Positions 1,722 through 32,000 of a DNA stretch of 32,000 nucleotides are shown piece after piece. Both the position numbers and the translations under genes were made by a program. Where the stretch lies: positions 510,001 to 542,000 of the forward strand of contig NZ_AP014945.1 in assembly GCF_001548275.1 (NCBI RefSeq), written 5' to 3'. This stretch comes from Caldimicrobium thiodismutans (GTDB lineage Bacteria; Desulfobacterota; Thermodesulfobacteria; Thermodesulfobacteriales; Thermodesulfobacteriaceae). The stretch's first letter is position 1, and every line of letters starts with the position of its first letter. The notes beneath the pieces are model-generated. The model ran no database searches. It saw only the letters and a list, made by a program, of their open reading frames with translations, and was not told the DNA's origin.

Positions 1722-3512
<1,791 letters not shown>

Positions 3513-3515
3513 AGT

Positions 3516-4458: not shown

Positions 4459-4459
4459 A

Positions 4460-4723
4460 ATGGAAACGAAAGGCTTAATTGTGCTGGCATCCATTATTGT
4501 GGTAGCTTTGATGATGGCCCTTGGATCTTATGCTCCTGCCAGGGCTCTTGGACAATCCATTCAGAGCGCCCTTGAGGCCATTTCCAGACAGCCTGAGGCC
4601 TCTTCTCAAATCACCCGAACCTTTATCATAGGTATAGCCATAATTGAATCCATTGTGATTTATCTATTCGTAATTGCCCTTATTTTACTTTTTGCCAATC
4701 CCCTGCTTGATTATCTAAAATAG
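4460..4723 (+). CDS. atpE: ATPase subunit c
   Basis: 87 aa helical hairpin with an RQPE loop and the ion-binding carboxylate in IAIIESIVIY. Confidence 0.9.
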   Translation: METKGLIVLASIIVVALMMALGSYAPARALGQSIQSALEAISRQPEASSQITRTFIIGIAIIESIVIYLFVIALILLFANPLLDYLK

Positions 4724-4730
4724 ACCAACC

Positions 4731-5468: not shown

Positions 5469-5472
5469 TTAC

Positions 5473-7807: not shown

Positions 7808-7819
7808 TATTCTGAAAAC

Positions 7820-8641
7820 TCATAAGAAAAAAAGTATTGAAAAAAAAATATAGATAATTAAATAAAGTAATATAAAAATATTGATTCCCTTGAAAGGATA
7901 AAAGGAATAGCTTTGAAGAAGAATAAAAGGCAGAAGTAACCAAAAAAAGACGAGTTGAGGTGGTAAAAATTTAAGCATCTCCTGGGCACCCACAAAAAAC
8001 CAGGGCCCTCTGGCTATTAATCCCTGAAAAGGCTTAAGGGGAAACTGTATAAAAAAAACCGGGATAATCACACCCAAAAAATAAAAAATCCTCTCCCAGC
8101 GAAGAAGAGCTTTTATTTTAATATGCCAGATAAAAAGCCCAAAAATAAGAAAAAAACTAAGAAAAATATGCCAGTGATAGACTCTACTTAATCCTATCTG
8201 AGAAATAGCTAAAAATATCCTGTTAATCCACTCTCCTAAAAAGGGTAAACTTAGAAGTAGGTTTTCAGCAATATTTCCAGCTAACTCACCAACCTCATCT
8301 CCTCTTAATAGATAACCGGTAAAGGTAATAAATAAAAGAATAAAAAAGGAAAGAACTAAAAAAAACCAGGCAATTTTGCCTTTTAGTAGGTAAAATTTTT
8401 TGTAAATACTTTCTAAAAGGTGTAAAAAAAGGGAAATTAGGGCAATCTGGGAAGAAAAATAGTGTATATTTCTAAGCAAACAACCCAGAGGAACTTGAGC
8501 CTCAAGTTGTAAAACACTTAAAAGAGGTTGATTATAAAAATAATGGAAGCTTAAAAACATACCTGAGATGGCAGAAACCAAAAGAGAAGCTGAGCTAAGA
8601 AAGGCAAGGGGAAGATAGACTGGCCCTTTAAGTAAGCTCAA
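7820..8641 (-). CDS. Compact cytochrome b (b6 + subunit IV-like in one 273-aa chain)
   Basis: About 7 TM helices. Helix-B His pair H-x13-H (HYFSSQIALISLFLH), helix-D His pair (HIFLSFFLIFGLFIWH), and a Qo-loop-like ...RGPWFFVGAQEMLKFLP. It overlaps the Rieske gene by 14 nt. Confidence 0.75.
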   Translation of the reverse strand: MSLLKGPVYLPLAFLSSASLLVSAISGMFLSFHYFYNQPLLSVLQLEAQVPLGCLLRNIHYFSSQIALISLFLHLLESIYKKFYLLKGKIAWFFLVLSFFILLFITFTGYLLRGDEVGELAGNIAENLLLSLPFLGEWINRIFLAISQIGLSRVYHWHIFLSFFLIFGLFIWHIKIKALLRWERIFYFLGVIIPVFFIQFPLKPFQGLIARGPWFFVGAQEMLKFLPPQLVFFWLLLPFILLQSYSFYPFKGINIFILLYLIIYIFFSILFFL

Positions 8642-9017
8642 CCTCTAAGCCCTCATCTTTGAGCTTGGATGGAATTTTTCTCAAATCCTTTTTAGCAGGA
8701 CCCTCAAGAAATTTACCCTGTAAAGTAAATTTACTTTGATGACAGGGACAAACAATTAATTCCCTCTCCGGGTCAAAGTTAAGCTTACAACCTAAATGGG
8801 GACACCTCCGAGAAAAACTTAGATAACCTATTTCTTTTTTAACCAGAATAAAATCCTCTCCAAGATATAATGTTTTTATCTTCTCAAGGTCAGACTTAGA
8901 TAGAAAAATTTTTTTGGGAGCTGGCCTTGAGAGATAGGCTAAATTTTGAAGTCCCAGGAAACCAAAAAAACCTATTGAGAAAAAGCCTAAAAATTTCAAA
9001 AAGTCTCTCCTTTTCAA
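8628..9017 (-). CDS. Rieske [2Fe-2S] protein with a Tat signal
   Basis: 129 aa. Twin-arginine MKRRDFLKF, plus cluster boxes CPHLGC and CPCHQSKF. Confidence 0.88.
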   Translation of the reverse strand: MKRRDFLKFLGFFSIGFFGFLGLQNLAYLSRPAPKKIFLSKSDLEKIKTLYLGEDFILVKKEIGYLSFSRRCPHLGCKLNFDPERELIVCPCHQSKFTLQGKFLEGPAKKDLRKIPSKLKDEGLEVELT

Positions 9018-9631
9018 GGTCTCTCCTCCTGAAAAGCTGGGGCAAGTTCCTTCAAAGCCTTTTTAATAAGATTTTCAAGGGTATCTTCCTCTTCAAAGAC
9101 CCTAAAAAGGGTTTCTTCAACCTCTTTACTCTGAAAACCTAAATTTACTAAACAGGCTTTGGCTTCCAGAAGAATTCTTTCTTTTTCTAAGGGTATAGTA
9201 AAACCCTTCCGCGTAATTTTTCCAAAAAGACCCTTTAATTCAAGAAAAAGCCTTTCAGCTCTTTTTTCCCCTATACCAGGAACTCGTGCTAAGTCCTTAA
9301 TTCGTCTTTCCTCAATAACCTTTCTGAGTTCTTCGGGACTAAAGACTGAAAGAAGATTTAAGGCAAGCTTAGGCCCCACCTTAGAAAGATTATTGAGTTT
9401 TATAAATAGCTCTCTTTCTTCTTGATTTAAGAAACCATAAAGCTCGGGATATTCATTTTTTCTAAGCAGAAGAACCACAAAAACCTCAATCTCTTTTCCT
9501 AAAAAATTCTGACGGAGGATCTCAGCCAGGCTAAAGGGCATATAGATCTCCCAGAAAAAAACCGCACTTTCAAGAATAAGCCGATTAGGTGAAAAAACTT
9601 CCTTAACTATTCCTCTAATTTTATAAAACAA
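9014..9631 (-). CDS. ruvA: Holliday junction branch-migration complex subunit RuvA
   Basis: 205 aa. MFYKIRGIV... OB-fold N-terminus and helix-hairpin-helix motifs (LSKVGPKLA, LARVPGIGEKRAERL). Confidence 0.9.
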   Translation of the reverse strand: MFYKIRGIVKEVFSPNRLILESAVFFWEIYMPFSLAEILRQNFLGKEIEVFVVLLLRKNEYPELYGFLNQEERELFIKLNNLSKVGPKLALNLLSVFSPEELRKVIEERRIKDLARVPGIGEKRAERLFLELKGLFGKITRKGFTIPLEKERILLEAKACLVNLGFQSKEVEETLFRVFEEEDTLENLIKKALKELAPAFQEERP

Positions 9632-9642
9632 GGGCTTCTCCT

Positions 9643-10125
9643 TTATAAAAGATTTAAATCCAGAGCTAAAACAAGGGCCATAGCAAGGGCATCTGTGGTA
9701 TGTTCATCTTTGATTTTAGCATCAAACTCTTTTCCTATAAAGGCCTTTAAAAAATTCTTAACCTCTGCCTTGGTAGCCTTTCCATCCCCACATAAATACT
9801 TCTTCCAAAAAGAGGGGTTGTAGTATCTTATAGGTATAGACTCTTCTTCAGCAATTATTAATACAATAGCTTGTGCCTGGAATACTTTTGCTGTTGAATG
9901 GGGGTTTATCTTAGGAATAGGCTCCTCTACAACCAGAAATTCTGGCCTTTCACTCTTAAGTAGTTTTTTAAAGGCTTGATATAAAAAAAATAAGCGTTGA
10001 GAGAGAGACTGTTTAGGAGGAGCCTTTATGGTTTCTGCCTTGATTAAATTGAGTTTTTTTTCCTTCACCTCCAAAAGGACACATCCAAGATTCAAAAGCC
10101 CGGGGTCAACTCCTAAAATTTTCAT
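9643..10125 (-). CDS. ruvC: Crossover junction endodeoxyribonuclease RuvC
   Basis: 160 aa. MKILGVDPGLLNLG (catalytic Asp) and a C-terminal ...DEHTTDALAMAL motif. Confidence 0.9.
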   Translation of the reverse strand: MKILGVDPGLLNLGCVLLEVKEKKLNLIKAETIKAPPKQSLSQRLFFLYQAFKKLLKSERPEFLVVEEPIPKINPHSTAKVFQAQAIVLIIAEEESIPIRYYNPSFWKKYLCGDGKATKAEVKNFLKAFIGKEFDAKIKDEHTTDALAMALVLALDLNLL

Positions 10126-10874
10126 AGGGATAACTTCATTCCATCATAAGCAGAAAGAACTTTAAGATTTAGTTCAGAACTTAATTCACGGGCAACTCGG
10201 AAGGGATTTGCCTTAAGCATGGTCATTCCAAAGTGAGTAAGAACAGTAATCTCAGGTTGAAGTTCCATTAAAAGTAGCTTAACATCAGGAATGGATAGAT
10301 GTAAAACCCCTTCCTTGGGCTGATAGCGAACCGTATTTATAATAAGATAAGAAACTCCTTTGAACTCCTCTAAAAGTCCATCAAAATAAGCGGTATCTGT
10401 AATTAACCCAAGTTTTTTATTTTTATCCACTTCAAAGATAAAACCAAAAGTTTCTGCAGAATGTAATAACTTTCTCGTGGTATGGAAAACAAAAGATTCT
10501 GCATGATAGGTATTTTTTTCTGAGAGGATTACAAGCTCTTTCAAAGCCTCCTTTAAATAGGGTAAAAGTAATCCTTCCAGCAAAATCTCCTCTGGCAAAA
10601 AGACTTTTCCTCTTTTTTTAAAACCACCCTCTGTTATTGCATCTACAAGGATATTTAGATCCGCAGAGTGATCAAGATGTTTATGTGAAACAAGGAGAGA
10701 TTTAATCTTTTCAGGATAAAGTTTATATTTAGCAAGATATACAAGGGTTCCAGGGCCAGGATCAATCAACAAATAGTCTCTGTCATTTCTAAATAAAAGT
10801 CCGGCCGAAGCCCTTAACTGTTTAGCTACCACATATCTTGCCCCAGCTGTTCCAAGAAAAAGGATTTCAAACAT
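10122..10874 (-). CDS. MBL-fold metallo-hydrolase
   Basis: 250 aa with the HKHLDHSAD (HxHxDH) motif. It has a 4-nt overlap with ruvC. Confidence 0.8.
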   Translation of the reverse strand: MFEILFLGTAGARYVVAKQLRASAGLLFRNDRDYLLIDPGPGTLVYLAKYKLYPEKIKSLLVSHKHLDHSADLNILVDAITEGGFKKRGKVFLPEEILLEGLLLPYLKEALKELVILSEKNTYHAESFVFHTTRKLLHSAETFGFIFEVDKNKKLGLITDTAYFDGLLEEFKGVSYLIINTVRYQPKEGVLHLSIPDVKLLLMELQPEITVLTHFGMTMLKANPFRVARELSSELNLKVLSAYDGMKLSL

Positions 10875-10881
10875 TAAACTG

Positions 10882-10910
10882 ATTATAAATTATTCTTTGC
10901 GAATGAAAAG
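10882..10910 (-). promoter_or_regulatory. Putative promoter of the MBL-ruvC-ruvA-Rieske-cytb string (-10 TATAAT at comp 10882-10887)
   Basis: The minus strand reads ...TATAATcagtttaATG. The -10 ends 7 nt before the ATG, with no SD. The -35 is weak (TTTTCA-like). Confidence 0.3.
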
Positions 10911-10936
10911 ATAAAGAAAGGGGGCAGAAAGCCCCC
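10902..10936 (-). terminator. Rho-independent terminator after the octaheme cytochrome gene
   Basis: The minus strand reads GGGGGCtttctGCCCCC followed by TTTCTTTATCTTTT. It begins 15 nt after the stop codon. Confidence 0.75.
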
Positions 10937-10950
10937 TAAGTAGGAACAAA

Positions 10951-12384
10951 CTATTTTTTACCTTTTACTATTCCTTTGGTAAATCTTCCACCCACTAAAG
11001 CAGGATCTTCAGGATAGCCAAGGGCCTTCCAATCGAGTCTCTTTTTAAAGTGACAATCATTGCAGGTCAAGGCATTTTCCTTGGGAGCAACTTCGTGCTT
11101 AGCTGCTATATAATAAGCAGTTTTAATGAAATCAAATTTTCCGCTATAAGGTAACCCGGATTCCTTTGAACCAAGCTGTAAGGCCTTTTCCCAGTTATAA
11201 TCACTCCACAGAGATTGCCAAACTCTGAAGACTAAGAGGTGTTTATATTGGATATCATAGGGCTGTTTACCGGTGTGCACCTTAAAAGGATAAATTTTGG
11301 CCTTAGGATCTTTTATTGAACCGAGAGGTTTATTTAATATAACACTTTTAGCAGGATCTACCTTGTCTCCCATCATATATCTTTCAAATTTACCATTATA
11401 CCACATATAAGTTGGAATAACATTTTCTCCCCATTTGAAGAGACCTTTATGCTTAGCAAAAACCTCACGACCAAATTCTTTTTTCTCTTCTAAATCTTTC
11501 ATATCTTTACCTACATAGCTCCAATCCCAATCAAGCTTTGTAGCAATTCCACCTCTGGCTATAGCAGGTATATGACAGGTTTCACAGGCCACTGATTTTA
11601 AATGTTTCTTTATCATTTGTCCTGAAGGAGAATTGTCATGCACGGACTCATCATGGCAATCACTACAAGATACTCTTTCTGTAAAAGTAGCCAACATACT
11701 TGAAGCGCCAGCAATTTTGTGATTCTTCGCTTTATGGCAATCCTGACAGGTCATATCAGCGCCACCCATATGAACATCAATTTCGCGAGGAATTTTTCCT
11801 CCCATTTTACTATAAAGACCTCCATGCTTTACATTATCACCGCCACCACCTGCAAAATGACACCATCCACAGTTAAATCTCTGGGGTTTACCAATTTGTG
11901 TAGCTGCCTTAGTCAGAGCAGCTGGATCAACCTTTCCACCTGGCTTTTTATTTTTGAAATATTCTTTATCTTGTGTATGACAGACTAAGCAATCAATATC
12001 ATTAGGATTACACTCTAAACATTTTGCATATTCTGATACATACCCTGCATGACATCTACCACAAAAAGCAAAATTTCCTCCCATAGGATTCACACAAAAA
12101 TTATTAAACATATTAATTTTTCCCCATTCTTTCTTTGCATTGGCTGGATTTTGGAATTTTCCTATGAGATTTGGATTTCCCTTCCATTTCCAGTGTGATG
12201 TCTGCATAAAGTCTTTGGCCTGTTTTTCGTGACACTGAAGACAAAGCTTGGTAACCTCTTGCCCGCTTGTAAAGTTGCCCTTTACAACCTGCGAGTGATC
12301 AAAAGAAGCCTCAGCTTTCGTATAGCTTGAAAAAGAAATAAGGGAAAAAGCAAAAAGACTAATCAAAACTCCCTTTTTTCTCAT
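10951..12384 (-). CDS. Secreted octaheme c-type cytochrome, probably tetrathionate-reductase (OTR) family
   Basis: 477 aa with a signal peptide. It has eight CxxCH motifs (CLQCH, CGRCH, CLVCH, CGWCH, CQDCH, CSDCH, CETCH, CNDCH) and a strong SD (GGAGGGGG). The OTR family call rests on size and heme count only. Confidence 0.8.
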   Translation of the reverse strand: MRKKGVLISLFAFSLISFSSYTKAEASFDHSQVVKGNFTSGQEVTKLCLQCHEKQAKDFMQTSHWKWKGNPNLIGKFQNPANAKKEWGKINMFNNFCVNPMGGNFAFCGRCHAGYVSEYAKCLECNPNDIDCLVCHTQDKEYFKNKKPGGKVDPAALTKAATQIGKPQRFNCGWCHFAGGGGDNVKHGGLYSKMGGKIPREIDVHMGGADMTCQDCHKAKNHKIAGASSMLATFTERVSCSDCHDESVHDNSPSGQMIKKHLKSVACETCHIPAIARGGIATKLDWDWSYVGKDMKDLEEKKEFGREVFAKHKGLFKWGENVIPTYMWYNGKFERYMMGDKVDPAKSVILNKPLGSIKDPKAKIYPFKVHTGKQPYDIQYKHLLVFRVWQSLWSDYNWEKALQLGSKESGLPYSGKFDFIKTAYYIAAKHEVAPKENALTCNDCHFKKRLDWKALGYPEDPALVGGRFTKGIVKGKK

Positions 12385-13702: not shown

Positions 13703-14380
13703 ATGAGTCTTATCAAGCTTGAAGACCTTACTAAGATCTATCCCCCTTATTATAAAGCCCTTCATAAGATTTCCTTAGAAATACAGAAAAATGCTTTTTT
13801 ACTAATTACTGGCCCAACAGGAGCTGGAAAAACCACCTTATTAAAGCTTATCTATGCTCAGGAAAAACCAACTGAAGGTGAACTTTACTGGGAAGGAGTT
13901 CCTTACTCCGAACTCAGGTATAAAGATATAATAGGCATTAGAAAAAATATTGGTATTGTCTTTCAAGATCACAAGCTCTTTTCAGAACTTTCTCTCTATG
14001 AAAACTTAGAGATAGCTTTAGCCCTTGCCAGAAAAAAAGTGAAAAAGATTAAATTTTTCATTTATGAGTGGCTTGAAAGATTTAATTTAGCCCACAAAGC
14101 CAAAAAAAAGGTTAAGGAACTCTCAGGAGGAGAACAGCAAAAACTGGGAATTCTTAGAGCTATTATTAAAGACCCTTCTATTTTGATCCTGGATGAACCA
14201 ACAGGAAATCTTGATCCCTTTAGTATTGGAGAGGTCATTGATCTTCTCATAGCTTTGCATAAAGAAGGGAAAACCATTTTACTTTCCACCCATGACCCTA
14301 CTATAATTGCCAAAAGACCAGGTCAGATAATTATGCTAAATCGTGGAGAACTTGTTAAAGATGTGGACATCTATTGGTAA
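13703..14380 (+). CDS. ftsE: Cell-division ABC ATPase FtsE
   Basis: 225 aa. Walker A GPTGAGKTT, signature LSGGEQQ, and Walker B ILILDEPTGNLD. It is followed by an FtsX-like permease. Confidence 0.88.
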   Translation: MSLIKLEDLTKIYPPYYKALHKISLEIQKNAFLLITGPTGAGKTTLLKLIYAQEKPTEGELYWEGVPYSELRYKDIIGIRKNIGIVFQDHKLFSELSLYENLEIALALARKKVKKIKFFIYEWLERFNLAHKAKKKVKELSGGEQQKLGILRAIIKDPSILILDEPTGNLDPFSIGEVIDLLIALHKEGKTILLSTHDPTIIAKRPGQIIMLNRGELVKDVDIYW

Positions 14381-15215
14381 ACTTGAAATTAAGAAAGGGC
14401 TTTTTTATTATTTACTTTTGTATCTGTTTTTCTTTTTTTGGTCAACATTTACGCTTTTTGCCCTATTTTTTTACACTAATATTAATCATATTTCAGACAA
14501 TTTTAATAAAAAAAGAGGCTTTTCAATACTATTTTATCCACAGGGAAATTTAAAAACTTTTGAAGATATAAAAGGAATTTTAACTAATTTGAACTATATA
14601 AAGAAATACCAAGTTATTCCACCGAGAGAGCTTTTAGCAAGCCTTGAAATTAACCTTCCTAAGGAACTTTTGGATGAAAAAGATCTCTATAATTTTCTTC
14701 CTTACTTAATACGAATAGATCTTATTTCACCGGATAAATCTTCTCAATTAAAAATGGATCTTCAAATGTATGAAAAAATGTTTAATATAACATTTGAATT
14801 TATATCTGAACCTCATTTAAAAAGTTTATACTTTTGGCAATATTCTAATATTGTAATATTAGCCTTCATTTTTCTTTGGAATTTATTTTATTTATTATTT
14901 TTTTATTTTCTAATTAAAACTCTTAATAGTCATTTAAAGGAACATAATGAAATTTTTCAATTTTTAGGTGGAAGTATTTTCAATCTTTTGGTTATTCGTT
15001 TTGCTATTTTAGTTTTTCCCTTAATTCTTTTACTTATTTTATCTTTTCTTTTTTATTTTTATATTTTATCTAAATTAATCTACTACTTTCCTGTCCTTAA
15101 AATCTTTCCAAACCTTAATAATATTTTTGAACTATCTTTTTTTGCTATATATCTTTTCTTTTTAATTTTTATTTATCCTATTTACCTTTTAATTCTATCT
15201 TTAAGAAAAATATGA
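14343..15215 (+). CDS. ftsX: FtsX-like cell-division permease
   Basis: 290 aa with TM1, an extracytoplasmic domain of about 110 aa, then three C-terminal TMs. The track start is GTG 14343, and the ATG at 14361 is an equally plausible start. Confidence 0.75.
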   Translation: MENLLKMWTSIGKLEIKKGLFYYLLLYLFFFFWSTFTLFALFFYTNINHISDNFNKKRGFSILFYPQGNLKTFEDIKGILTNLNYIKKYQVIPPRELLASLEINLPKELLDEKDLYNFLPYLIRIDLISPDKSSQLKMDLQMYEKMFNITFEFISEPHLKSLYFWQYSNIVILAFIFLWNLFYLLFFYFLIKTLNSHLKEHNEIFQFLGGSIFNLLVIRFAILVFPLILLLILSFLFYFYILSKLIYYFPVLKIFPNLNNIFELSFFAIYLFFLIFIYPIYLLILSLRKI

Positions 15216-15976
15216 AATTTCCTTTTTTTATTTTACTAATCTTTTTGCCCTGCTATCTTTTTGCCCAAACTAATATTGAAAATCAAATAAAAATCTTAGA
15301 AATTAAGCTTTACAATATAAATCAGGAATTAAAAATAAAGGAAGTAAAATTAAAAAAAATAAAACAAACTTATCTTTTAACTTTAATTAAAGCTAATATT
15401 ATAAAAGAAAATCTGATCTTTCTTGATGAAGAAAGTAAATATTATAAAAATATGGAAAATTATGAACTTCTTATAAAAATTCATGAAAATATTATAAAAA
15501 GATTAAAAGACGAAATTAAAATGTTTCAAGAGCAAAAAAAACAGTATAAAGTTGAATTAGAAGAAAACAAAAAAGTTAAAGAAACTTATTATAGGGAACA
15601 AATTAAAGTAGCTTTAAATTCAGAAAAAAAATCAATCAAAGAACACCATATTAAACCAGATACTGAAGATATTAGAAAAACCTCATTTCTTTTTGATCCA
15701 ATTACAGAAAAAAGTATATCTACAGGCAAATTTAAAAGGCATGTTCAACCCGGAACCCCTATTAAAGCTCCAATCTCCGGGATAGTAAAAAAAATAAGCT
15801 TTCTTAACAATTCCCTAACTTTAACTCTTGAAAACAAGCAGTGTTTTGCTTTTATATCGGGTTTCAGTATAATTAAGGTAAATCTTGGTGAAGAAGTGCG
15901 AGCCAAACAAGTTCTTGGAGAGGCCTCCTACTCTGAGGAGGCAGAAAATCTCTACTTTGAAATCTTTTGCAAGTAG
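15212..15976 (+). CDS. EnvC-like coiled-coil / degenerate LytM (M23) domain protein
   Basis: 254 aa with a signal peptide and a long K/E coiled coil. The C-terminal LytM-like domain (PIKAPISGIVKKI...LYFEI) contains no His residues, so no HxxxD or HxH motif. Confidence 0.65.
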   Translation: MKFPFFILLIFLPCYLFAQTNIENQIKILEIKLYNINQELKIKEVKLKKIKQTYLLTLIKANIIKENLIFLDEESKYYKNMENYELLIKIHENIIKRLKDEIKMFQEQKKQYKVELEENKKVKETYYREQIKVALNSEKKSIKEHHIKPDTEDIRKTSFLFDPITEKSISTGKFKRHVQPGTPIKAPISGIVKKISFLNNSLTLTLENKQCFAFISGFSIIKVNLGEEVRAKQVLGEASYSEEAENLYFEIFCK

Positions 15977-15979
15977 GTG

Positions 15980-16450
15980 CTAATCAAATAAATTTTTAAT
16001 AACCTTCTTTTCAAAATATGAAAAAAGTTTTCCAGGTAGATAGAGAGCGCATCCCAGAATCCAATCCTCATCTCTTATAATTACATATCCAGGTGCAAGA
16101 TCAAGTTCTATATCTATTTTTTGCCTTTCCTGAAGAAGTTTTAATTGTTCTTGATTTAGTTGAATTATATTTTTAGTAGCGTATTTACCAAAGCGTTGTA
16201 AAAAGGTTGAGGTAGGTTTTAAATAATCTGAAACCTTACGAAGAAACAATAATCCAACAACCTCAGGAGTAAGTTTTTTTAAAGAAAGTAAGTGAGTAGT
16301 TTTAGGAAAAAGCCAGAAAGTAGAGGATCCCTTTAAAATCACAAAATCTGCAAAAATCTCCTCATTGAAACCAAATCTTTCCTTTAAAAAAGATATAATC
16401 TCCTTTTTTTCTTCAAGGCTTATCTCATCCGGAAAAGCTTTTTTAGTCAT
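15980..16450 (-). CDS. Hypothetical protein, possibly an RsmF-C-terminal/PUA-like fold
   Basis: 156 aa with an SD (AAGAGGG) upstream. The tail ...APGYVIIRDEDWILGCALYLPGKL... resembles PUA-like domains of RsmF-type methyltransferases. The fold assignment is tentative. Confidence 0.5.
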   Translation of the reverse strand: MTKKAFPDEISLEEKKEIISFLKERFGFNEEIFADFVILKGSSTFWLFPKTTHLLSLKKLTPEVVGLLFLRKVSDYLKPTSTFLQRFGKYATKNIIQLNQEQLKLLQERQKIDIELDLAPGYVIIRDEDWILGCALYLPGKLFSYFEKKVIKNLFD

Positions 16451-16513
16451 ATAGGCCCTCTTATTACTTAAATTACTTTAAAGGTAACCTATTTAGTTAA
16501 TTTTGACAACCCT

Positions 16514-17796: not shown

Positions 17797-19023
17797 CTAT
17801 GAAAAATTATAAGCATAGTAAAAACCTCCTTGAGAAGGAATATTATGATAAGTAGTAGAAGGATCAAAATATTTTTTATATTTGAGAAGTGCATAAATAA
17901 TTCTCAAAAGTTTATGAGCGGTGGCCAAAACCGCTTTTTTATAAGGCAATCCTTGTCTTTTTCTCCTCTCAAAATAGCTCCAGAATATAGGATTGTGTCT
18001 GATTACATTAATACTCATAAGCCATACAACCCTTCTCAAATGCCTATTTCCTCGTTTAGAAATCTTGCTCTTTCCTTTAAAGTTTCCAGATTCATAAACA
18101 GCAGGATCAAGTCCTGCATAGGCAATCAATTGTTTGTAAGATTGAAATCTCTTTATATCTTGAATTTCAGCAAGAAAATGAAGCGCTGTAATTTCTCCAA
18201 TTCCCTCAATAGAAAGGAGGATATCAAGGTCCTGGCAAGCGGAAATCTCTTTACAAGCGGATTTAAGAAGTTTTTCAATTTCTTTAAGGGTTTCCTGAAG
18301 GAAGAAGAGTTCTTGAATGGTTCTGGAAAGAATATATTCTTTTGCGGGCCAATTTTGAGCTATAGAATATTCAGCAAGGGCTTTTATTTCTTTAGCAGAA
18401 ATGGCGGGTTTTTTACCTTTTTGAGAGGAGAGTATATTTTCAATTTCCTCAAGAGAGGCTTTTTTAATAGCTTTAGCAGAGGGGAATTTTTCAAGAAGTT
18501 TAAGAATGGAGGTATTGTAGATATTGACGGTTCTTTCAAGTTCAGGGAAGGTAACGACCACAAGTTTTTCGAGGTTATTTTTTCTTTTAGCGATTTCTTG
18601 AGAAATTCTTTCTCTTTCTCTGGCAAGGTCTTTAAATTCTTCAGAAGTAAAGGCCTGGGGAGGTAGTTTTTGATGGAATTGAGAAAGGAAGATGGCGATA
18701 GTTTTAGCGTCTATGGCATCGGTTTTGGTTTTTCTAAGAGAGAGTTTAGCAAAATTTTTAATGAGAATTGGATTAAGGATGACGCAAGTGAAGTTATGAT
18801 TAACGAGGTAGGTGATGAGATTAAGATGATAACAACTGGAGGATTCAATACCGATAAGGATGGATTTTTTTAAGCCTTGAGGGAGAGCTTTTGTAAAGGA
18901 ACTGATGCCCTGGTAGTCAAGAGGGTAGGACTGGTTAAAGAGGACATTTTGAGAGGAATCAATGAGGCAGGCATGAAAGAAGTTTTTGGAGACATCAAGG
19001 CCTACAAAGTAGGTGTAGTGCAT
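17797..19023 (-). CDS. IS110-family DEDD transposase/recombinase
   Basis: 408 aa. The N-terminal RuvC-like DEDD domain has YFVGLDVSK, IGIESSSCYH and KTDAIDA. The C-terminal Transposase_20-type domain has LLSIEGIGEITALHFLAEI...GLDPAVYESGNFKGKSKISKRGNRHLR. Confidence 0.92.
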   Translation of the reverse strand: MHYTYFVGLDVSKNFFHACLIDSSQNVLFNQSYPLDYQGISSFTKALPQGLKKSILIGIESSSCYHLNLITYLVNHNFTCVILNPILIKNFAKLSLRKTKTDAIDAKTIAIFLSQFHQKLPPQAFTSEEFKDLARERERISQEIAKRKNNLEKLVVVTFPELERTVNIYNTSILKLLEKFPSAKAIKKASLEEIENILSSQKGKKPAISAKEIKALAEYSIAQNWPAKEYILSRTIQELFFLQETLKEIEKLLKSACKEISACQDLDILLSIEGIGEITALHFLAEIQDIKRFQSYKQLIAYAGLDPAVYESGNFKGKSKISKRGNRHLRRVVWLMSINVIRHNPIFWSYFERRKRQGLPYKKAVLATAHKLLRIIYALLKYKKYFDPSTTYHNIPSQGGFYYAYNFS

Positions 19024-23988: not shown

Positions 23989-24291
23989 TTACCTAATAGT
24001 TGACTCCTTTAGTCTTAACATATATTCATTCCATTCCCAGGGGGAAAGAGATTTCTTTTTAATGTTGCAATCCTTACAGGCTGGAACAATATTTTCCTTA
24101 GTTGAAAGTCCTCCCTTGCTAAGAGGAATTCGGTGATCCATGGTGAGTTCCTCTGGAGAGACCCTCCTCCCACAGTAATAGCAAATACCTCTCTCTACTT
24201 TTCGCCGCCACCAACGAGTCTTCTTAAGAGCTCTGGCCTTGACCTTTTCTCTTCTAATATGCTCTTCTAAAAAAGAAAAATTACCTTTCAT
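23989..24291 (-). CDS. Small HNH endonuclease
   Basis: I prefer the start at ATG 24291 (MKGNFSFL...) over the track's 24336, which would overlap cmk by 56 nt. HNH core: CYYCGRRV...DHRIPLSKGG...NIVPACKDCNIKK. Confidence 0.75.
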   Translation of the reverse strand: MKGNFSFLEEHIRREKVKARALKKTRWWRRKVERGICYYCGRRVSPEELTMDHRIPLSKGGLSTKENIVPACKDCNIKKKSLSPWEWNEYMLRLKESTIR

Positions 24292-24961
24292 AGGCTCTCT
24301 TAATAAACATTTCCAACCGTTCAACCACCTGATCAAAATTTAAATTGGTAGTATCTATGACTATAGCCGATTCAGGGACTTTGAGGGGGGCTATTTCTCT
24401 TTCACTGTCCCTTTTATCTCTTTCCAAAAGATTCTTTTTCACCTCCTCAAGGCCCCTATCAATTACATCTTTTGCTCGTCTTCTGGCCCTCTCTTCAAGG
24501 TCAGCAGTCAAAAAAAACTTTAAATCTGCCTGAGGGAAGACGCAGCTCCCCATATCCCTTCCCTCTGTAATAACCCGTTTTCCCTCAATTAAGCGTCTCA
24601 TAAATTTGTTCACCTCCTCCCTGACAACTGGATGAGAGGAGATCTCAGAGACCTTTTCTTCAACCTCCTTTGACCTCAATTCATTATTTATAGGTCTCCC
24701 CTGATAAATAAGAACTGTGCCCTCTGGAGAGATTTTTATTTCAATTTCTGAGAGAAATTCTTCGATTTTTTTTCTAAATATTTCATCTGATGAAAATTGT
24801 GAATCCATAATATCGGATTGAAGAAGTCTCAGAGTTAGATAGCGATAAAAGGCCCCAGATTCAAGTAAATCAAGGTTTAATTTTTTAGCCAGGGCCTTGG
24901 CTACAGTAGTCTTTCCTGAGCCTGCTGGCCCATCAATTGTAATAATAAATTCTCTCATCAA
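24281..24961 (-). CDS. cmk: Cytidylate kinase
   Basis: 226 aa. P-loop ITIDGPAGSGKTTVAKALA, and GRDMGSCVFPQADLKFFLTA. Confidence 0.9.
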   Translation of the reverse strand: MMREFIITIDGPAGSGKTTVAKALAKKLNLDLLESGAFYRYLTLRLLQSDIMDSQFSSDEIFRKKIEEFLSEIEIKISPEGTVLIYQGRPINNELRSKEVEEKVSEISSHPVVREEVNKFMRRLIEGKRVITEGRDMGSCVFPQADLKFFLTADLEERARRRAKDVIDRGLEEVKKNLLERDKRDSEREIAPLKVPESAIVIDTTNLNFDQVVERLEMFIKRAYER

Positions 24962-26427: not shown

Positions 26428-27666
26428 TTAAAGCATTTTCTCCGCAATATGGACTGTCAGATCCCCCATCATATGGGTATAGGAGGCAAGTTCATTATCA
26501 TACCAACCATAAATCACAACCTGAGTTATGGGAATTTCAATTTGAGATGAACTGAGTCCTTTTATCTCCTCAGGGGTGACAACACCGCAGGCCTTCTGAA
26601 GATCAACCCGAGCCAGAGCTGTCCTTGTATGCGTTTCTCTGCCTTCAATGATAGCAGCTGCCCTTGGATATCCAATGATATCCGTAGAGACATTTTGTTC
26701 CATACTAAAGATTAAAAAGTCTTTATATTTGGTCTCGGCAGCCTCTTTATAAATCTGGTTAACAAGCTCACGATTGATATGATTTTCTATACTCTCATCT
26801 TGAATATTAACCGTTAGAATTATCAAACTCCCTGTGGTTAAAGGAACACGGACACTTTCAGCCATAAATCCAATTTTTTTCATCTCCGGTATAACAAGCC
26901 CCAGGGCCTCAGCTGCACCAGTGGTTGTGAGAATAATGTTATTGAAAACACTTCTTGCTCGTCTTAAGTCCTTTTCTCCCTCTTTAGGCACTCTGTCTAA
27001 GATAGACTGGGAGGCAGTAGTTGCATGGACTGTCACCATTGCGGCAGAGAGGATACGTTCTGCTCCAAAGTAATCTAACAAAGGTTTTACCATATACGCT
27101 AAACAGGTAGTTGTGCAAGAGGCAGAAGATATTATATGGTGTCTTTCAGGCTGATACATCTCTTCATTTATTCCATAAACAAGGGTAATGGCATCTTCAG
27201 GTAAGGTTTTATCTTTGTTTTTAATCTTAAAAGGGGCTGAGATTAAAACCTTTTCTGCTCCTGCTAAAAGATGGCCCCTGGCTGACCCTTTGGGATCATC
27301 TGCTTCCTTGGTTGGGTCTCTAAATTTTCCTGTGCAGTCTACAACTAATTTAACTCCTTCCTTTTGCCATTCAATATCCTTGGGATTTCGGTTTTGCATT
27401 AAAAACTTGACCTTAACACCATTTATAACCATGGTCTTTTCCTGATCATTAATATTTTCAATGACCCTTTTGGAATTATGACCATAGAGCCAGACAGGTA
27501 GCCATCCATAGGTGCTATCCTTCTCAATGTATTCTGCTAAATCTGTAAAGGATGTTCCAACCTCTCTCCCCAAATTTACTACGATCTCTGAAAAATATTT
27601 TCTTGAGACATGATGCCAAAGAGTAAGCTTCCCAATTCTTCCCAGACCATTAATTCCAAGTTTCAT
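26428..27666 (-). CDS. Long (412 aa) glyceraldehyde-3-phosphate dehydrogenase-family paralog
   Basis: INGLGRIGK Rossmann motif, catalytic SSASCTTTCLAYM, VHATTASQ, TTGAAEAL and WYDNE. It has several insertions relative to the ~335-aa GAPDHs. The SD AAGGAGGGG sits inside the end of the upstream gene. Confidence 0.85.
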   Translation of the reverse strand: MKLGINGLGRIGKLTLWHHVSRKYFSEIVVNLGREVGTSFTDLAEYIEKDSTYGWLPVWLYGHNSKRVIENINDQEKTMVINGVKVKFLMQNRNPKDIEWQKEGVKLVVDCTGKFRDPTKEADDPKGSARGHLLAGAEKVLISAPFKIKNKDKTLPEDAITLVYGINEEMYQPERHHIISSASCTTTCLAYMVKPLLDYFGAERILSAAMVTVHATTASQSILDRVPKEGEKDLRRARSVFNNIILTTTGAAEALGLVIPEMKKIGFMAESVRVPLTTGSLIILTVNIQDESIENHINRELVNQIYKEAAETKYKDFLIFSMEQNVSTDIIGYPRAAAIIEGRETHTRTALARVDLQKACGVVTPEEIKGLSSSQIEIPITQVVIYGWYDNELASYTHMMGDLTVHIAEKML

Positions 27667-30600
27667 AAGCCCCTCCTTGTTTAATTAATTTACCTTTATA
27701 AATATCTCCAGTAATTCCATTCAAAGTTATCCAGTCACCAAGCTTAATCTCTTTTCCATTAAGTTTAGCTGATTTTTCAAATTCATCAATCCGTAGTTCC
27801 TCACATCCTACCACACAAACCTTACCCAGCCTTCCTGCCACAATAGCAGCATGCGAGGTCTGGCCTCCTCTTGCAGTAAGTAAACCCTCAACTAAAGAGA
27901 TTTCCTTAATATTATCAGGAACTGTATCATATCTAATTAGAATAAGAGGGTCCTTAGTATCCTTTAAGTTTAAAATATCCTCTAAGGTAAAAACAACCCT
28001 TCCAGATACAAGACTTCCTGAAACCCCAATACCTCTCCCAAGATAATCAAGATTTTCAAGGGCCTTCCTTTGAAAATAAGGCAAGGTCTTTTCTTCCCGA
28101 AGGATTATATCTCTAACCTGTAAAATATACAAATCCTTAGGAGACTCACTTTCAAAGGTAAATTCAATTTCCTGATGATCCCAGCCCTTTTCATAGACAA
28201 TATAATAGGCAAGGTCTAAGAGACTTTTATAAATATCAGGAAAGGCTTCTTCCAGGGAAAGCCCCTCTCTCTTTTCTAACTTCTTTTGCTCAATAGATAT
28301 GGGATAGGCATTTACAAGTCCCGAAACAATATCCTCTCCCTGATTATAGGGTGTATAATCTCCCCAGAGAAGGATACGAGGGAATTTCCCATGCGGAGAG
28401 GTTGTAAAGGTCACTCCTGTGCCTGAACGAGGCCCTTTATTACCAAAAACCATTTGTTGCACTATAATAGCTGTTCCCCATTCCTCTGCAATCTCCATTA
28501 TTTCACGATAATAGACTGCTTTTTGATGATACCAAGAGTTTAGAATAAGCTCTATACTTTTAAATAATTGTTCCCAGGGATCATCAATTACAGGAATTCC
28601 AAGTTTTTCAACCTCTGCCCTGTATAAAAGGGCAAGTTCTCTCATCTCACCCCCACTAAATTCCCTTTTCATTTTCACCTTATATTTTCGCTTATGCTCC
28701 CTCATTAATCGATTGAAGAAATCCCTTGGAACACCCTGGGCCATAGCCCAGGATTGAATAAATCTTCTATAAGTATCCCAGGCAAACCATAGATTTTGAG
28801 TCTCCTTAGCTAAACCTTCTGCAATTTCAGGATTAATACCTACATTTAATATAGATGTCATCATACCAGGCATGGAAATAGTTGCGCCACTTCTTACACT
28901 TAAAAGAAGTGAATTATTGGGAGCATTAAATTTTTTGTGAGTTTTTTCTTCTATGAATTTAATGGCCTCTTTTATTAGGGACTCATATTCCTTCCAGAGA
29001 TCATAATATTTTTTAAAGAGTTTATAACATCTAAAATTTTCTGTAGTTAATATAAATCCATAAGGTATTTTAGTATAAAAAAGTTCATCCTTAGATAATT
29101 GAATTAAATTAAAGGCCTTGCTTCCTAAATAAATCTGATCATTAGCTAAGGGATTGGGTTTATAAATATAGCTTATACTTTTTCTTGTATCAAAAGATAA
29201 AAGGATATTTAACTCATTTCCCTCTATTTTTTCCTTATTCTTTATTAGTGCTTCATAGATCTTTTTTAAGAATTTATCTAAATATTTAACGATAAAACCG
29301 CTATTTAGGATGTCTCTAATAATAACTTCACTTAAACAATAATAGGCTTCTTCTTTATTTTTATTTTTAAGATATTTTTTATATTTGTCTTGTAAGGCTG
29401 ATTCATCTAAAATATCAAAGATTAAAGGAAACACATTTAAATAAGGATTCACATAATAAGATTTTATTATATGTTGGACTCCGTCAATTAAACCTTTAAA
29501 TATATCAAGATACTGATCAAAAGATATTGGATAACTTTTTAAAGAGTTTTCTAAGAGATCAAGATATAAATTAAACTTTTGTGAGGATATTCCGTCTACC
29601 TCTAAAGCTTTTTTAAATAGATTGAGGATCTTTAAAATTTTAAAGACCTGTGCCTTGGTTAAAAACTTAATTTGGAATTCTTCAATTAACTGAGAAAATT
29701 TATTCTCAATCAAAAACTCCAGTCTATAGGTCAAACCAAGGGCATCAAATTTTTTCTCTCTATATCTTCCATACATTGAGGGTATATCTACCGCAATATG
29801 TCTTTTTAAAAAGATTTCTTCAATAGGAGTAAACTTTTTAGGAGATAAAATATACTCTTCTTTCAAAAGATTTACCCATTGAAGAAGTTGATTTATCTGT
29901 TTTATTAAATTACGATCCTGTAAAATTTTTGGTAATTCAGAAACAAAGTCAAAACCAGATGCCTTATATTGCTCTATAAAACTTAACATATCAGTTAAAT
30001 ATCCAAAATATTTCTGTTTTTCAAGTTTATATAAATGAATCAAGGATAAAAGTTTAAATTTATTTTCTGAAGTTTCATCTATATTTTCTAAGGCTTTTTG
30101 GATGTCTGATAAGTTAATTTCTAAAAAGTCTTCTATCTGATATAGAGAAAAGGTTTTAAATAATTCAACTAAAAGCTTTTGCATAGGTATATGAAAGGAT
30201 AATTCGTCTTTAATAATTCTTCGCCATATTGCTTCAGGTAAATATCTTTTAATATAATTACCATCAAGAGTAAACCAATAATAAAAGATATCTTTAATAA
30301 AATCAATGGCTAAACTTGAATTTTCAATATGAATAAATTTTCTCAAAAAATGTAAAAGGGTATCTTTTCTTTGTGAAATCTCATCTATTTCAGTTGATAA
30401 GTCCCTGATGAGTCCTTCAGCACCTATCTCATTAAAATAAACAGGAAATATTTTACAAAATTGTTTTACAAGATTATAAACAGGTTTAATAGGTGAGTTT
30501 AGCAGAGAAGATATTTCCTTCTGAAAGAGATCGGTATCTCTTAAGGATAACCCGTAAAGTTTAAGATTTAGAAAAAGCGCTGCAAGAAGACTTGAACACC

Positions 30601-31762
30601 ATTCAGGATGAGCCTTAAAGATATCCAGCCAGGCCTTAAGGCTTAAAAGATGATTAGGATTATCTTTTATCCTCCAGTGCTCATCTATACCCTCTACCTG
30701 AGGGGGGAAAAAACCATATTTTATAATTTCCCCTATTAAAATCTCCGCCAAATAAACAGCTCTTTTATTAAGTATGGATATCCCAATATTTTTAATGCAT
30801 TCAAAGGCAGTCCATGGATAGAGATCAGATTTTTCTTTTAATATGGAAAAAAACTTGGTTAAAAATTCTTCAAGTTTTTCTGAAGGTTTTTCCTCAATCA
30901 TTTTCAAAAGAATCTGGTTTACTTCTTTAATTAGCTCTTCATGTAAAAGAAGGAGAGTGGGATTTTCTATAAAATTAAAAAGAATTGATAAACGCTCTTC
31001 TTCAGGGATACCCTCTTTTTTATTAGAGCATACCTCTTGCACATAAGTTTTTACTTTCCTCAAAAGATCTAAATGATCAGGATATTCAAGTAGTTCAGAT
31101 AAAGGCAATGGTCCTTTTTGAAAAGCGTCTTCTTTTAAATGGCGCAATTCATCAGGCAATAATTTTTGTCTTTCCCAGAGCTGGTAGGTTAATTTAAGAT
31201 ATCTGTAAAGCAATTTCTGTAAAATTTGAATGAAATCTGATTCAAGAGGAAATTTAGCAATCTTGTGAGCAAGTCTCTTAAAGGAATAATAATTTTCAAG
31301 AAAGGCATAAAATATAGGATCGGGAAGCTCGCTTCCAGCTTTGATGATCTCCATAAGAATAGGAGAAATTTTTATAAAAATATCTTTGTCCATGATATTA
31401 ACAGTTTTATCGAGAAGGGCATAATAGATCTCAGCGGTTTTGATATTTACTTCTCTTTTATCACTAAAAAATTTAAATAACAACTCAAAAATAAGATAAA
31501 GACCCTTATTACTTAAAGGGCTCCTTAAAATAAGTGCAAGATTTCTCAAAAAGAAGGCCCTAAATTCTTCTAAAACAAGAAGGGTGTTTCTAAAGGGATG
31601 AAAGATTTCTCTGAGTATAAAGGAAACCTGTTTTTTTAAGGCAGGAAAATCTTTAAAGATCTCAAGTAAAAGCTCATATTTTTCATCATAATGAATTTCA
31701 GTTACACGCGTTTGCTGAAGATTAGCAAGTAAGGCCTTAGAGGTAAAAGTTGATTGCCCCAT
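27650..31762 (-). CDS. 1370-aa PPDK/PEP-synthase-like protein: unknown N-terminal region of ~875 aa, then an ATP-grasp nucleotide-binding domain, then a phospho-His swivel domain. The PEP/pyruvate TIM barrel is absent.
   Basis: The C-terminal ~494 aa carry LLLSVRSGATISMPGMMTSILNVGIN, DTYRRFIQSW, IIVQQMVFGN..SGTGVTFT, QGEDIVSG and LLTARGGQTSHAAIVAG (His codon at comp 27851-27853). The protein ends about 65 aa after the His motif. Confidence 0.85.
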   Translation of the reverse strand: MGQSTFTSKALLANLQQTRVTEIHYDEKYELLLEIFKDFPALKKQVSFILREIFHPFRNTLLVLEEFRAFFLRNLALILRSPLSNKGLYLIFELLFKFFSDKREVNIKTAEIYYALLDKTVNIMDKDIFIKISPILMEIIKAGSELPDPIFYAFLENYYSFKRLAHKIAKFPLESDFIQILQKLLYRYLKLTYQLWERQKLLPDELRHLKEDAFQKGPLPLSELLEYPDHLDLLRKVKTYVQEVCSNKKEGIPEEERLSILFNFIENPTLLLLHEELIKEVNQILLKMIEEKPSEKLEEFLTKFFSILKEKSDLYPWTAFECIKNIGISILNKRAVYLAEILIGEIIKYGFFPPQVEGIDEHWRIKDNPNHLLSLKAWLDIFKAHPEWCSSLLAALFLNLKLYGLSLRDTDLFQKEISSLLNSPIKPVYNLVKQFCKIFPVYFNEIGAEGLIRDLSTEIDEISQRKDTLLHFLRKFIHIENSSLAIDFIKDIFYYWFTLDGNYIKRYLPEAIWRRIIKDELSFHIPMQKLLVELFKTFSLYQIEDFLEINLSDIQKALENIDETSENKFKLLSLIHLYKLEKQKYFGYLTDMLSFIEQYKASGFDFVSELPKILQDRNLIKQINQLLQWVNLLKEEYILSPKKFTPIEEIFLKRHIAVDIPSMYGRYREKKFDALGLTYRLEFLIENKFSQLIEEFQIKFLTKAQVFKILKILNLFKKALEVDGISSQKFNLYLDLLENSLKSYPISFDQYLDIFKGLIDGVQHIIKSYYVNPYLNVFPLIFDILDESALQDKYKKYLKNKNKEEAYYCLSEVIIRDILNSGFIVKYLDKFLKKIYEALIKNKEKIEGNELNILLSFDTRKSISYIYKPNPLANDQIYLGSKAFNLIQLSKDELFYTKIPYGFILTTENFRCYKLFKKYYDLWKEYESLIKEAIKFIEEKTHKKFNAPNNSLLLSVRSGATISMPGMMTSILNVGINPEIAEGLAKETQNLWFAWDTYRRFIQSWAMAQGVPRDFFNRLMREHKRKYKVKMKREFSGGEMRELALLYRAEVEKLGIPVIDDPWEQLFKSIELILNSWYHQKAVYYREIMEIAEEWGTAIIVQQMVFGNKGPRSGTGVTFTTSPHGKFPRILLWGDYTPYNQGEDIVSGLVNAYPISIEQKKLEKREGLSLEEAFPDIYKSLLDLAYYIVYEKGWDHQEIEFTFESESPKDLYILQVRDIILREEKTLPYFQRKALENLDYLGRGIGVSGSLVSGRVVFTLEDILNLKDTKDPLILIRYDTVPDNIKEISLVEGLLTARGGQTSHAAIVAGRLGKVCVVGCEELRIDEFEKSAKLNGKEIKLGDWITLNGITGDIYKGKLIKQGGAYETWN

Positions 31763-31768
31763 TTCTCC

Positions 31769-32000
31769 TTAGAGATATTCTTTATCAATCATTAAACTAA
31801 TAAGGTCAAGAAGTCTCACGGAGTAGCCCCATTCGTTATCATACCAGGCAATAATTTTGAGAAGATTTCTTCCAATAACCTTGGTTGTTAAGCCATCAAT
31901 AATAGCACTATGGGGATCCCCAACTAAATCCATAGAAACTAAGGGTTCCTCCATATAACGAATAAACCTGCTCTGGTTTTCTTTAAATATTTTATTAAGT
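31769..32000 (-). CDS. gap: Canonical glyceraldehyde-3-phosphate dehydrogenase, C-terminal 77 codons (5' end outside the window)
   Basis: The frame is open to the window edge. ...EEPLVSMDLVGDPHSAIIDGLTTKV...KIIAWYDNEWGYSVRLLDL is the GAPDH C-terminal signature. Confidence 0.85.
   Translation of the reverse strand, partial: LNKIFKENQSRFIRYMEEPLVSMDLVGDPHSAIIDGLTTKVIGRNLLKIIAWYDNEWGYSVRLLDLISLMIDKEYL

Follow-up and report, generated by a model that had tools for sequence, protein, structure and literature searches.

Several described enzymes combine an ATP-grasp nucleotide-binding domain with a swivelling phospho-histidine domain. Pyruvate, phosphate dikinase (PPDK, EC 2.7.9.1; Clostridium symbiosum structures 1KBL and 1DIK) adds a C-terminal TIM barrel, the phosphoenolpyruvate (PEP)/pyruvate domain, and in rifampin phosphotransferase (RPH), HpeHI and glucan-water dikinase (GWD) the ATP-grasp and swivel-His domains are joined to a different acceptor domain, parts of which are disordered in RPH when substrate is absent. 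Enzyme I of the phosphotransferase system (PTS) possesses a homologous swivel His domain and transfers its phosphate to a partner that docks on a helical subdomain, but it is charged by PEP via a TIM barrel and not by ATP. Finally, VadK (Rv1127c) of Mycobacterium tuberculosis is a PPDK cut down to its ATP-binding and His domains, which autophosphorylates on the catalytic histidine in an ATP/Mg-dependent manner, as established by mass spectrometry, co-immunoprecipitates with PrpC and PrpD, which are encoded next to it, and modulates flux through the methylcitrate cycle at the post-translational level, without transcriptional effects (PMC13400623). The gene described here, hereafter gene X, is located on the minus strand at positions 27650 to 31762 of a 32,000-nucleotide stretch of the Caldimicrobium thiodismutans genome (contig NZ_AP014945.1, positions 510,001 to 542,000; hereafter the window, to which all coordinates refer unless a locus is named). 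X is a member of the swivel-His dikinase superfamily that joins a novel, family-defining solenoid domain with a conserved place in a triose-phosphate operon, and it is probably an overlooked and mislabelled player in central carbon metabolism. No earlier description of this architecture or of this family was found in full-text literature searches.

Gene X is an uninterrupted open reading frame (ORF) of 1370 codons with an ATG start, according to ORF analysis of the window, and its full-length homologues share 34-99% identity with it. The protein of 1370 aa is composed of (i) an N-terminal alpha-solenoid delimited on an AlphaFold2 model (aa 1-874; 29141 to 31762, minus strand), (ii) a PPDK-type ATP-grasp nucleotide-binding domain defined by alignment to 1KBL and 9PZL (aa 875-1218; 28109 to 29140, minus strand) and (iii) a swivel phospho-histidine carrier domain defined by PF00391 and by PPDK alignment (aa 1227-1362; 27677 to 28084, minus strand). 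A preliminary description had recognised PPDK-type ATP-grasp and swivel motifs in this ORF and had expected matches to PF01326 and PF00391 and none to PF02896, which is what profile searches returned. Indeed, Pfam assigns PF01326 (PPDK_N) to aa 928-1163 (87.7 bits) and PF00391 (PEP-utilizers) to aa 1271-1352 (63 bits), with no match to PF02896, the PEP/pyruvate TIM barrel, over the whole protein. In a phmmer search against PDB sequences, residues 875-1218 and 1227-1362 aligned, within the same match (E = 1.7e-81), with residues 15-338 and 378-513 of C. symbiosum PPDK, respectively. The protein terminates 8 residues beyond the end of the swivel domain (aa 1362); the same description had inferred the loss of the barrel from a stop about 65 aa past the swivel motif, and while the barrel is absent as stated, the distance from the TSH motif region to the stop is 60 residues. 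X is thus a PPDK_N plus PEP-utilizers protein without a PEP/pyruvate barrel anywhere.

The curated family models agree poorly with any of the existing names. X scores below the cut-offs of the PPDK model TIGR01828 (366.6 bits versus 843.45), of the PEP synthase (PEPS) models TIGR01418 (76.5 versus 739.75) and NF005057 (90.2 versus 598), of the rifampin phosphotransferase model NF041857 (31.8 versus 999) and of the PTS Enzyme I model TIGR01417 (20.4 versus 341.7), and its C-terminal half likewise falls below that of the Rv1127c-type model NF004531 (273.8 versus 456). Members of the family are nonetheless labelled in databases as 'PEP synthase', 'pyruvate, orthophosphate dikinase', 'PEP-utilizing enzyme' or 'PEP/pyruvate-binding domain-containing protein'. 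The warning in the preliminary description that a 'pyruvate phosphate dikinase' label would mislead was therefore well placed, since that label is in public use and the scores are far below the curated cut-offs. Hundreds of genomes mislabel X as PEP synthase or PPDK, and metabolic reconstructions can be corrupted in consequence.

The dikinase half, which is about 32% identical to 1KBL, looks catalytically intact from its residues. At the level of the residue alignment, K881 corresponds to PPDK K22, R957 (the arginine of SVRSGA) to R92, the glutamate of QEIEFT to the glutamate of DMEFT (E323), the ILQVRD motif to Q335 and R337, with R1217 as the equivalent of R337, and T1302 and H1304 to T453 and H455; the SMPGMM loop is also retained. 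The columns matching PPDK catalytic residues are invariant or nearly so in an alignment of 67 family members, and PDB entries 1JDE, 2DIK and 1GGO represent, according to their titles, PPDK mutants at K22, R337 and T453. His1304, which aligns with PPDK His455 and is the predicted phospho-carrier, is family-invariant and lies within GGQTSHAAIVA; its codon occupies positions 27851 to 27853 (minus strand), and the motif TARGGQTSHAAIVAG covers aa 1296-1310. On the strength of this residue conservation, autophosphorylation of His1304 is predicted. An AlphaFold2 model of aa 171-1370 (1200 residues; pLDDT 85.7, pTM 0.71) superposed on 1KBL, 1DIK and 2DIK with an rmsd of 5.4-5.6 A (about 550 columns) and on 2R82, 1VBG and 5JVJ only at 12-15 A. 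According to the literature, the His domain occupies the nucleotide site in the former three structures; 2R82 is entitled 'second conformational state'. The modelled His domain of X is located at the ATP site, as in the 1DIK-type state, and the swivel domain matches the NMR structure 2FM4 with a TM-score of 0.85.

The N-terminal region is the novel part of the protein. The preliminary description had found it helix-rich and devoid of known motifs over about 875 aa, and both points stood up: an AlphaFold2 model of aa 1-880 alone, built with a 67-sequence alignment, comprises about 45 helices and only one beta-hairpin (aa 647-668), with a pLDDT of 85.6 and a pTM of 0.76, and no Pfam, NCBIfam or PDB-sequence match was obtained. 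In brief, aa 1-874 gave no Pfam or NCBIfam match at E <= 1 beyond noise, ten core fragments of the domain gave nothing in Pfam, and a profile of its conserved core gave nothing against PDB sequences at E <= 10. Foldseek searches of the PDB returned only HEAT/ARM solenoids (RRP12, RanBP5, importin-beta, SF3B1, CAND1 and Integrator) at E >= 5e-4 and TM <= 0.2, a likeness to be read at class level only, and gave no RPH match for this domain. A PEP/pyruvate barrel hidden in the N-terminal 875 aa, for instance by permutation, had been named beforehand as the observation that would overturn the description; it was looked for and is ruled out by the confident all-alpha solenoid that AlphaFold2 and Foldseek yielded. 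The DNA encoding the solenoid has a low GC content (0.25-0.29 between positions 29000 and 31000; the dikinase half and the window as a whole are both near 0.38), which agrees with the richness of the domain in Lys, Ile, Leu, Phe and Asn; there is no sign of a foreign origin, since relatives possess the whole gene.

The solenoid is not a spacer, as judged from its conservation, its invariant positions and its persistent motifs. In the family alignment, aa 340-500 and 650-700 are at least as well conserved as the catalytic half, the hairpin region (aa 647-682) is conserved as strongly as the catalytic half, and 86 N-terminal positions are invariant in the 67 sequences. Four motifs stand out, all encoded on the minus strand: (i) DTDLFQ (aa 409-414; 30521 to 30538), invariant and placed at the N-terminus of helix 410-421, (ii) the Gly-rich loop NEIGAEG (aa 444-450; 30413 to 30433), of which E445-G450 are invariant and which caps helix 448-461, (iii) the basic motif HFLRKxxHxE (aa 471-480; 30323 to 30352), with invariant F472, L473, R474, K475, H478 and E480, and (iv) the beta-hairpin with the motif that follows it (29744 to 29824), where the invariant pattern is K653-R654-H655-x-A-x-D-I-P-S662...G665.Y667.E669.K671-F-D673. 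The hairpin strands are aa 647-654 and 661-668 (DSSP on the AlphaFold2 model), which places KRH...IPS at the tip, and DTDLFQ and NEIGAEG lie at helix N-termini in the AlphaFold2 models. Even subgroups whose identity over aa 301-875 is only about 22% keep these four motifs, in the forms D-[TD]-D-L-F-Q (present in most distant subgroups), NE[IV]GAxG..R..T..D, [HY]F[LIMV]RKQxH and K-R-H-I-A-x-[DG]-I-P-S..G.Y.E.KF[DE]A, the last being the best-conserved N-terminal motif over all subgroups. The NEIG loop (pLDDT below 50-60) and the hairpin tip (below 50) are low-confidence spots in both AlphaFold2 models, which are confident elsewhere. An 874-aa domain with these properties merits a family assignment of its own.

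The survey of homologues and of their neighbourhoods that the preliminary description had proposed revealed a large Desulfobacterota family with recurrent glyceraldehyde-3-phosphate dehydrogenase (GAPDH) neighbours. An N-terminal query retrieved at least 1356 proteins, and relatives are encoded at no fewer than 581 loci (at least 581) of GTDB species genomes. These homologues, at least 1356 in number, are nearly all 1360-1436 aa long and carry PF01326 and PF00391, so the architecture of X is not due to chance. In an exhaustive profile search of 1.84 billion representatives, the 387 clusters recovered were all full-length-like or fragments, and none of them showed the N-domain in another architecture, save a few with an added hemerythrin domain. 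The family is spread over Thermodesulfobacteria (Caldimicrobium, the closest among the matches listed, Thermodesulfobacterium, Thermodesulfatator and Thermosulfurimonas), Desulfobulbia including the cable bacteria Electrothrix and Electronema, and other Desulfobacterota; the carriers also include Dissulfurirhabdus, Desulfobulbus, Desulfogranum, Desulfocapsa, Desulfofustis and Desulfurivibrio, as well as Desulfarculaceae and Desulfobacteraceae. A distant subgroup bears an extra N-terminal hemerythrin (HHE) domain (P0188, P0179; locus L083, positions 1166-5788), and these relatives are adjoined by a GGDEF/HAMP protein and not by gap genes.

The GAPDH/triose-phosphate context is the strongest new clue to X. 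Directly upstream, the 3' end of gapS (31769 to 32000, minus strand; the gene continues past the window edge) encodes a canonical NAD-type GAPDH (…IAWYDNEWGYS…), of which the terminal residues ...IAWYDNEWGYSVRLLDLISLMIDKEYL are a GAPDH C-terminus (PF02800); its stop lies 6 nt ahead of the ATG of X, the six intervening bases being GGAGAA, and the full-length orthologue in an 84%-identical relative (L001) has 335 aa. Downstream, gapL (26428 to 27666, minus strand) starts inside the 3' end of X, with an overlap of 17 nt, and is followed in the window by nusB. The order gapS-X-gapL is also found in the 84%-identical relative and, beside pgk-tpi-secG, in a 34%-identical one, and in Dissulfurirhabdus it is extended to rapZ-EIIA(Man)-GNAT-gapS-X-gapL-pgk-tpi-secG, so that it ranges from Caldimicrobium to distant Desulfobacterota. 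Among 82 loci scored, with each count restricted to loci having flank enough to judge, gapS is upstream of X in 43 of 70 and gapL immediately downstream in 25 of 64; where both flanks could be read, at least one adjacent GAPDH gene is present in 43 of 56 (both sides in 15, gapS only in 22, gapL only in 6). In addition, pgk occurs in 12 and tpi in 11 of the X neighbourhoods, glgA-gapS-X is found in about 20 Desulfobulbaceae loci, and these neighbours (gap, pgk, tpi, glgA) are all on the strand of X. The wide phylogenetic scatter of the full gapS-X-gapL-pgk-tpi arrangement suggests that it is ancestral.

At several loci (L001, positions 3741-7994; L086, positions 1-2621; L017-L020, L069, L071 and L078), gapS-X stands directly downstream of lptB-rpoN-hpf-rapZ-(EIIA-Man)-GNAT acetyltransferase. 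The lptB-rpoN-hpf-rapZ-(EIIA-Man) portion corresponds to the classic rpoN/regulatory-PTS cluster; no ptsN, HPr or Enzyme I gene is in view at the rpoN-hpf-rapZ-linked X loci.

The gapL product (412 aa) is a divergent phosphorylating GAPDH, as indicated by Pfam, NCBIfam and alignment. Its database label is plain 'type I GAPDH', yet it scores 350.2 against a TIGR01534 cut-off of 367.2. The catalytic Cys and His (in SCTT and TVHA) and the phosphate sites are intact, T179, R231 and the TTTGAA loop being kept, and gapL belongs to a clade of proteins of 405-460 aa, abundant in Desulfobacterota, with 72-88% identity among Thermodesulfobacteria. This clade carries N-x-G-R in place of the NAD-determining Asp32 (234 of 239 members) and six clade-specific insertions, one of which (35-55 aa long) includes an ETHTRT motif, present in 193 of 238 members. 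The sequence features suggest that gapL represents a distinct and probably active GAPDH clade. Asp32 has reportedly been tied to NAD specificity in work on the Bacillus stearothermophilus enzyme; gapS carries the canonical 'IND' form of this residue, and the missing Asp of gapL points to a possible NADP(H) preference and hence to an anabolic role.

Taken together, four features, namely an intact ATP-to-His module, the lack of a pyruvate site, a second conserved polar/Gly-rich surface and the GAPDH/PGK/TPI operon, lead us to favour, tentatively, the reading of X as a swivel-His phosphotransferase which would act on a non-pyruvate acceptor in triose-phosphate metabolism. The N-terminal region could then serve to recognise the phospho-acceptor, and because the apparently ancestral position of X is inside gapS-X-gapL-pgk-tpi, this acceptor would most likely belong to triose-phosphate metabolism. 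In such a cycle, ATP would be bound by the ATP-grasp domain, probably together with phosphate (Pi) as in PPDK, to give AMP and pyrophosphate (PPi); the beta-phosphate would be placed on His1304; the swivel domain would move to a second site on the solenoid, formed by DTDLFQ, NEIGAEG, HFLRKxxH and the KRHxAxDIPS hairpin; and an acceptor held there would receive the phosphoryl group. Phosphotransfer to an N-domain site, a small molecule as acceptor, its identity and the choice of Pi over water as co-substrate are all points that we infer. In this respect, deeply conserved polar and Gly-rich motifs in disordered loops resemble the substrate-ordered loops of the RPH acceptor domain, and RPH, HpeHI and GWD are precedents for such a design.

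The preferred candidate for the acceptor is 3-phosphoglycerate (3-PG), which would be converted into 1,3-bisphosphoglycerate (1,3-BPG); it would account best for the GAPDH genes on either side. The gapL product, which is translationally coupled to X and probably accepts NADP, would reduce 1,3-BPG at once, and a hand-over straight to gapL would protect the heat-labile acyl-phosphate, so that X and gapL would form an AMP-forming gluconeogenic bypass of phosphoglycerate kinase (PGK); in the reverse direction, X would consume AMP and PPi and yield ATP. PPDK-type formation of an acyl-phosphate would be near equilibrium, whereas the PGK reaction costs about +19 kJ/mol in that direction (textbook free energies). 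The specific proposal that X, with gapL, acts as a '3-phosphoglycerate, phosphate dikinase' (3-PG + ATP + Pi <-> 1,3-BPG + AMP + PPi) and thereby ties dissimilatory sulfur energetics to the triose-phosphate pool is nevertheless speculative, and we regard it as doubtful.

Several observations weigh against the phosphotransferase reading or its 3-PG version. The N-domain has an open alpha-solenoid fold, which typically belongs to protein scaffolds and not to small-molecule active sites. Adding the dikinase half in the 1200-aa model did not order the invariant loops, in which pLDDT was still <50, so the models lend no support to docking of the swivel domain on them. The 13 of 56 loci without an adjacent GAPDH gene are all Desulfobulbus-type, and the distant X subgroups have no adjacent gap gene; among gapL homologues on long contigs, X is adjacent in 1 of 3 and gapL stands alone in 2 of 3, so that the partnership is not obligate in gene order. 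A PGK bypass is not strictly needed, since pgk is present in the same operons, and the few relatives with an N-terminal hemerythrin domain are more sensor-like.

The main rival, and a serious one, is a regulatory role. By analogy with VadK, X could sense energy status via phosphorylated His1304 while the solenoid docks gapS, gapL and perhaps PGK. Binding, whether or not phosphate is also passed to a protein residue, would tune their activity or assembly and thereby switch the triose-phosphate segment from glycolysis to gluconeogenesis and back; we consider this possible but less likely. VadK and X both lack a PEP/pyruvate domain, keep the catalytic His and the ATP-site residues and are encoded beside linked metabolic enzymes; the M. 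tuberculosis protein is a precedent built from the same two PPDK domains, and NF004531 matches the C-terminal half of X at 273.8 bits. Alpha-solenoids are typically protein-binding scaffolds. Moreover, the hemerythrin-fused variants suggest sensory input, the six surface insertions of gapL could serve docking, and rapZ, GNAT and EIIA-Man genes lie upstream of X. However, VadK has only about 490 aa without any extra domain and acts in the methylcitrate cycle of Actinomycetes, X remains below the NF004531 cut-off and scores better against true PPDK, which argues that the resemblance is convergent and arose by independent truncation, and acidic, basic and Gly-rich motifs that stay invariant at about 22% identity look more like an active site than like a co-evolving interface. 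The many X genes without an adjacent gap gene count against docking to GAPDH as well. If X were a regulator, it would be a second, far more elaborate PPDK re-purposed as a His-phosphorylated controller, independent of VadK.

The swivel domain shares homology with its counterpart in Enzyme I (TIGR01417 and PtsI matches), which raises the question of whether X is an ATP-driven analogue of that protein, phosphorylating HPr/NPr or an EIIA bound by the helical domain and feeding the rpoN-hpf-rapZ regulatory PTS. X is encoded downstream of rpoN-hpf-rapZ in Thermodesulfobacteria, an EIIA-Man gene is inserted between rapZ and GNAT-gapS-X at 8 loci, and the H-T-R of the gapL ETHTRT motif recalls the H-[STA]-R phospho-His (His15) signature of HPr in PROSITE. 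The hypothesis is very unlikely: no HPr-like ORF is present near X in any of 88 loci, the Caldimicrobium loci have no PTS gene in the cluster, and the synteny may be just two operons side by side.

It is equally improbable that X is still a pyruvate/PEP enzyme, whether with the solenoid as a non-homologous pyruvate/PEP site or with a separately encoded barrel as partner. True PPDK is certainly the nearest relative of its C-terminal half, by TIGR01828 score and by identity to 1KBL, with homologous ATP-grasp and swivel domains in the same order and conserved catalytic residues, and PEP formation would suit a gluconeogenic context. X differs from PPDK, however, in lacking the C-terminal barrel, in the added 874-aa N-terminal solenoid and in its place in a gap-pgk-tpi operon, where the neighbouring genes act at the triose-phosphate level and not at the PEP-pyruvate node; no PEP-utilizers_C gene was present in any X neighbourhood examined, and a separate PEPS, encoded elsewhere, is abundant in related organisms. 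Indeed, the Desulfolithobacter proteome contains an abundant PEPS of 816 aa and a PEPS is up-regulated in Dissulfuribacter. The published reconstruction of Thermosulfurimonas dismutans assigns PGK to TDIS_2021, GAPDH to TDIS_2022 and TDIS_2024 and PEP synthase to TDIS_0764, and never mentions TDIS_2023 (PMC4911364). TDIS_2023 must be X, since the T. dismutans locus L017 matches this listing, so at least one published reconstruction has passed over the gene (PMC4911364). A canonical PEP synthase is thus separate from X in X-carrying lineages, and PEP synthesis does not require X.

The weakest alternative is a GWD-style glucan (glycogen) dikinase with a polymer-binding helical domain, which we consider highly improbable: GWD is a giant swivel-His dikinase of about 1400 aa (near the size of X) which has the chemistry that X would use, a long non-catalytic N-terminal region and a function in carbohydrate metabolism, and glgA lies directly upstream of gapS-X in the Desulfobulbaceae loci, but GWD places its His domain before a C-terminal nucleotide-binding domain and carries N-terminal carbohydrate-binding modules (CBM45/CBM20), while X has the opposite, PPDK-type order and shows no such module or other carbohydrate-binding signature in Pfam searches of the whole protein and of fragments, and the glgA linkage is limited to one lineage, whereas the gap linkage is probably ancestral.

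Among enzymes with a dedicated acceptor domain, RPH, HpeHI and phenylphosphate synthase share with X an ATP-grasp domain, a C-terminal swivel His and a separate acceptor domain (putative in X), and wrong PEPS or PPDK labels are common among them. In RPH, however, the acceptor domain is central and of another fold, and the catalytic half of X belongs to the PPDK branch and not to that of RPH; the weak Foldseek match between RPH and the 1200-aa model (E of about 1e-4) presumably arises via the common ATP-grasp and His domains.

The carriers of X drive the anaerobic sulfur cycle as sulfate reducers, sulfur disproportionators and cable bacteria. Were X an enzyme acting on a new acceptor, the GAPDH/PGK segment, the best-studied stretch of metabolism, would gain a reaction, and X could bear on the balance of AMP, PPi and ATP in these organisms. 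Were the 3-PG dikinase proposal true, Desulfobacterota would possess an AMP-forming, PGK-independent gluconeogenic route, which in reverse would recycle the AMP and PPi of sulfate activation and in the forward direction would supply AMP and PPi for reverse adenylyl-sulfate (APS) reductase and ATP sulfurylase in disproportionators and cable bacteria.

Several other features were observed in the window. An ATP-synthase operon (1753 to 7807, plus strand) has the order beta, epsilon, gap, a, (c), b/OSCP-like fusion, alpha, gamma, which is typical of N-type ATPases and not of the usual F-type. It is followed on the minus strand (7820 to 12384) by genes for a cytochrome b and a Rieske protein, then by ruvA, ruvC and a metallo-beta-lactamase-fold gene, and lastly by a gene for a multihaem cytochrome c of 477 aa (Cytochrome_cB plus c7/c3-like). 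Genes for a TetR regulator and an ABC ATPase precede a low-GC island (0.24-0.28) at positions 14000 to 16500; its ORFs at 14343 to 15215 (plus strand) and 15980 to 16450 (minus strand) have no Pfam match, and the ORF at 15212 to 15976 is weakly M23-peptidase-like. An IS110-family transposase (DEDD_Tnp_IS110 plus Transposase_20) is encoded at 17797 to 19023 (minus strand), with overlapping ORFs on the opposite strand. Finally, a small HNH endonuclease gene (23989 to 24336, minus strand) is located between cmk and glmS, a position that is conserved in the 84%-identical relative.

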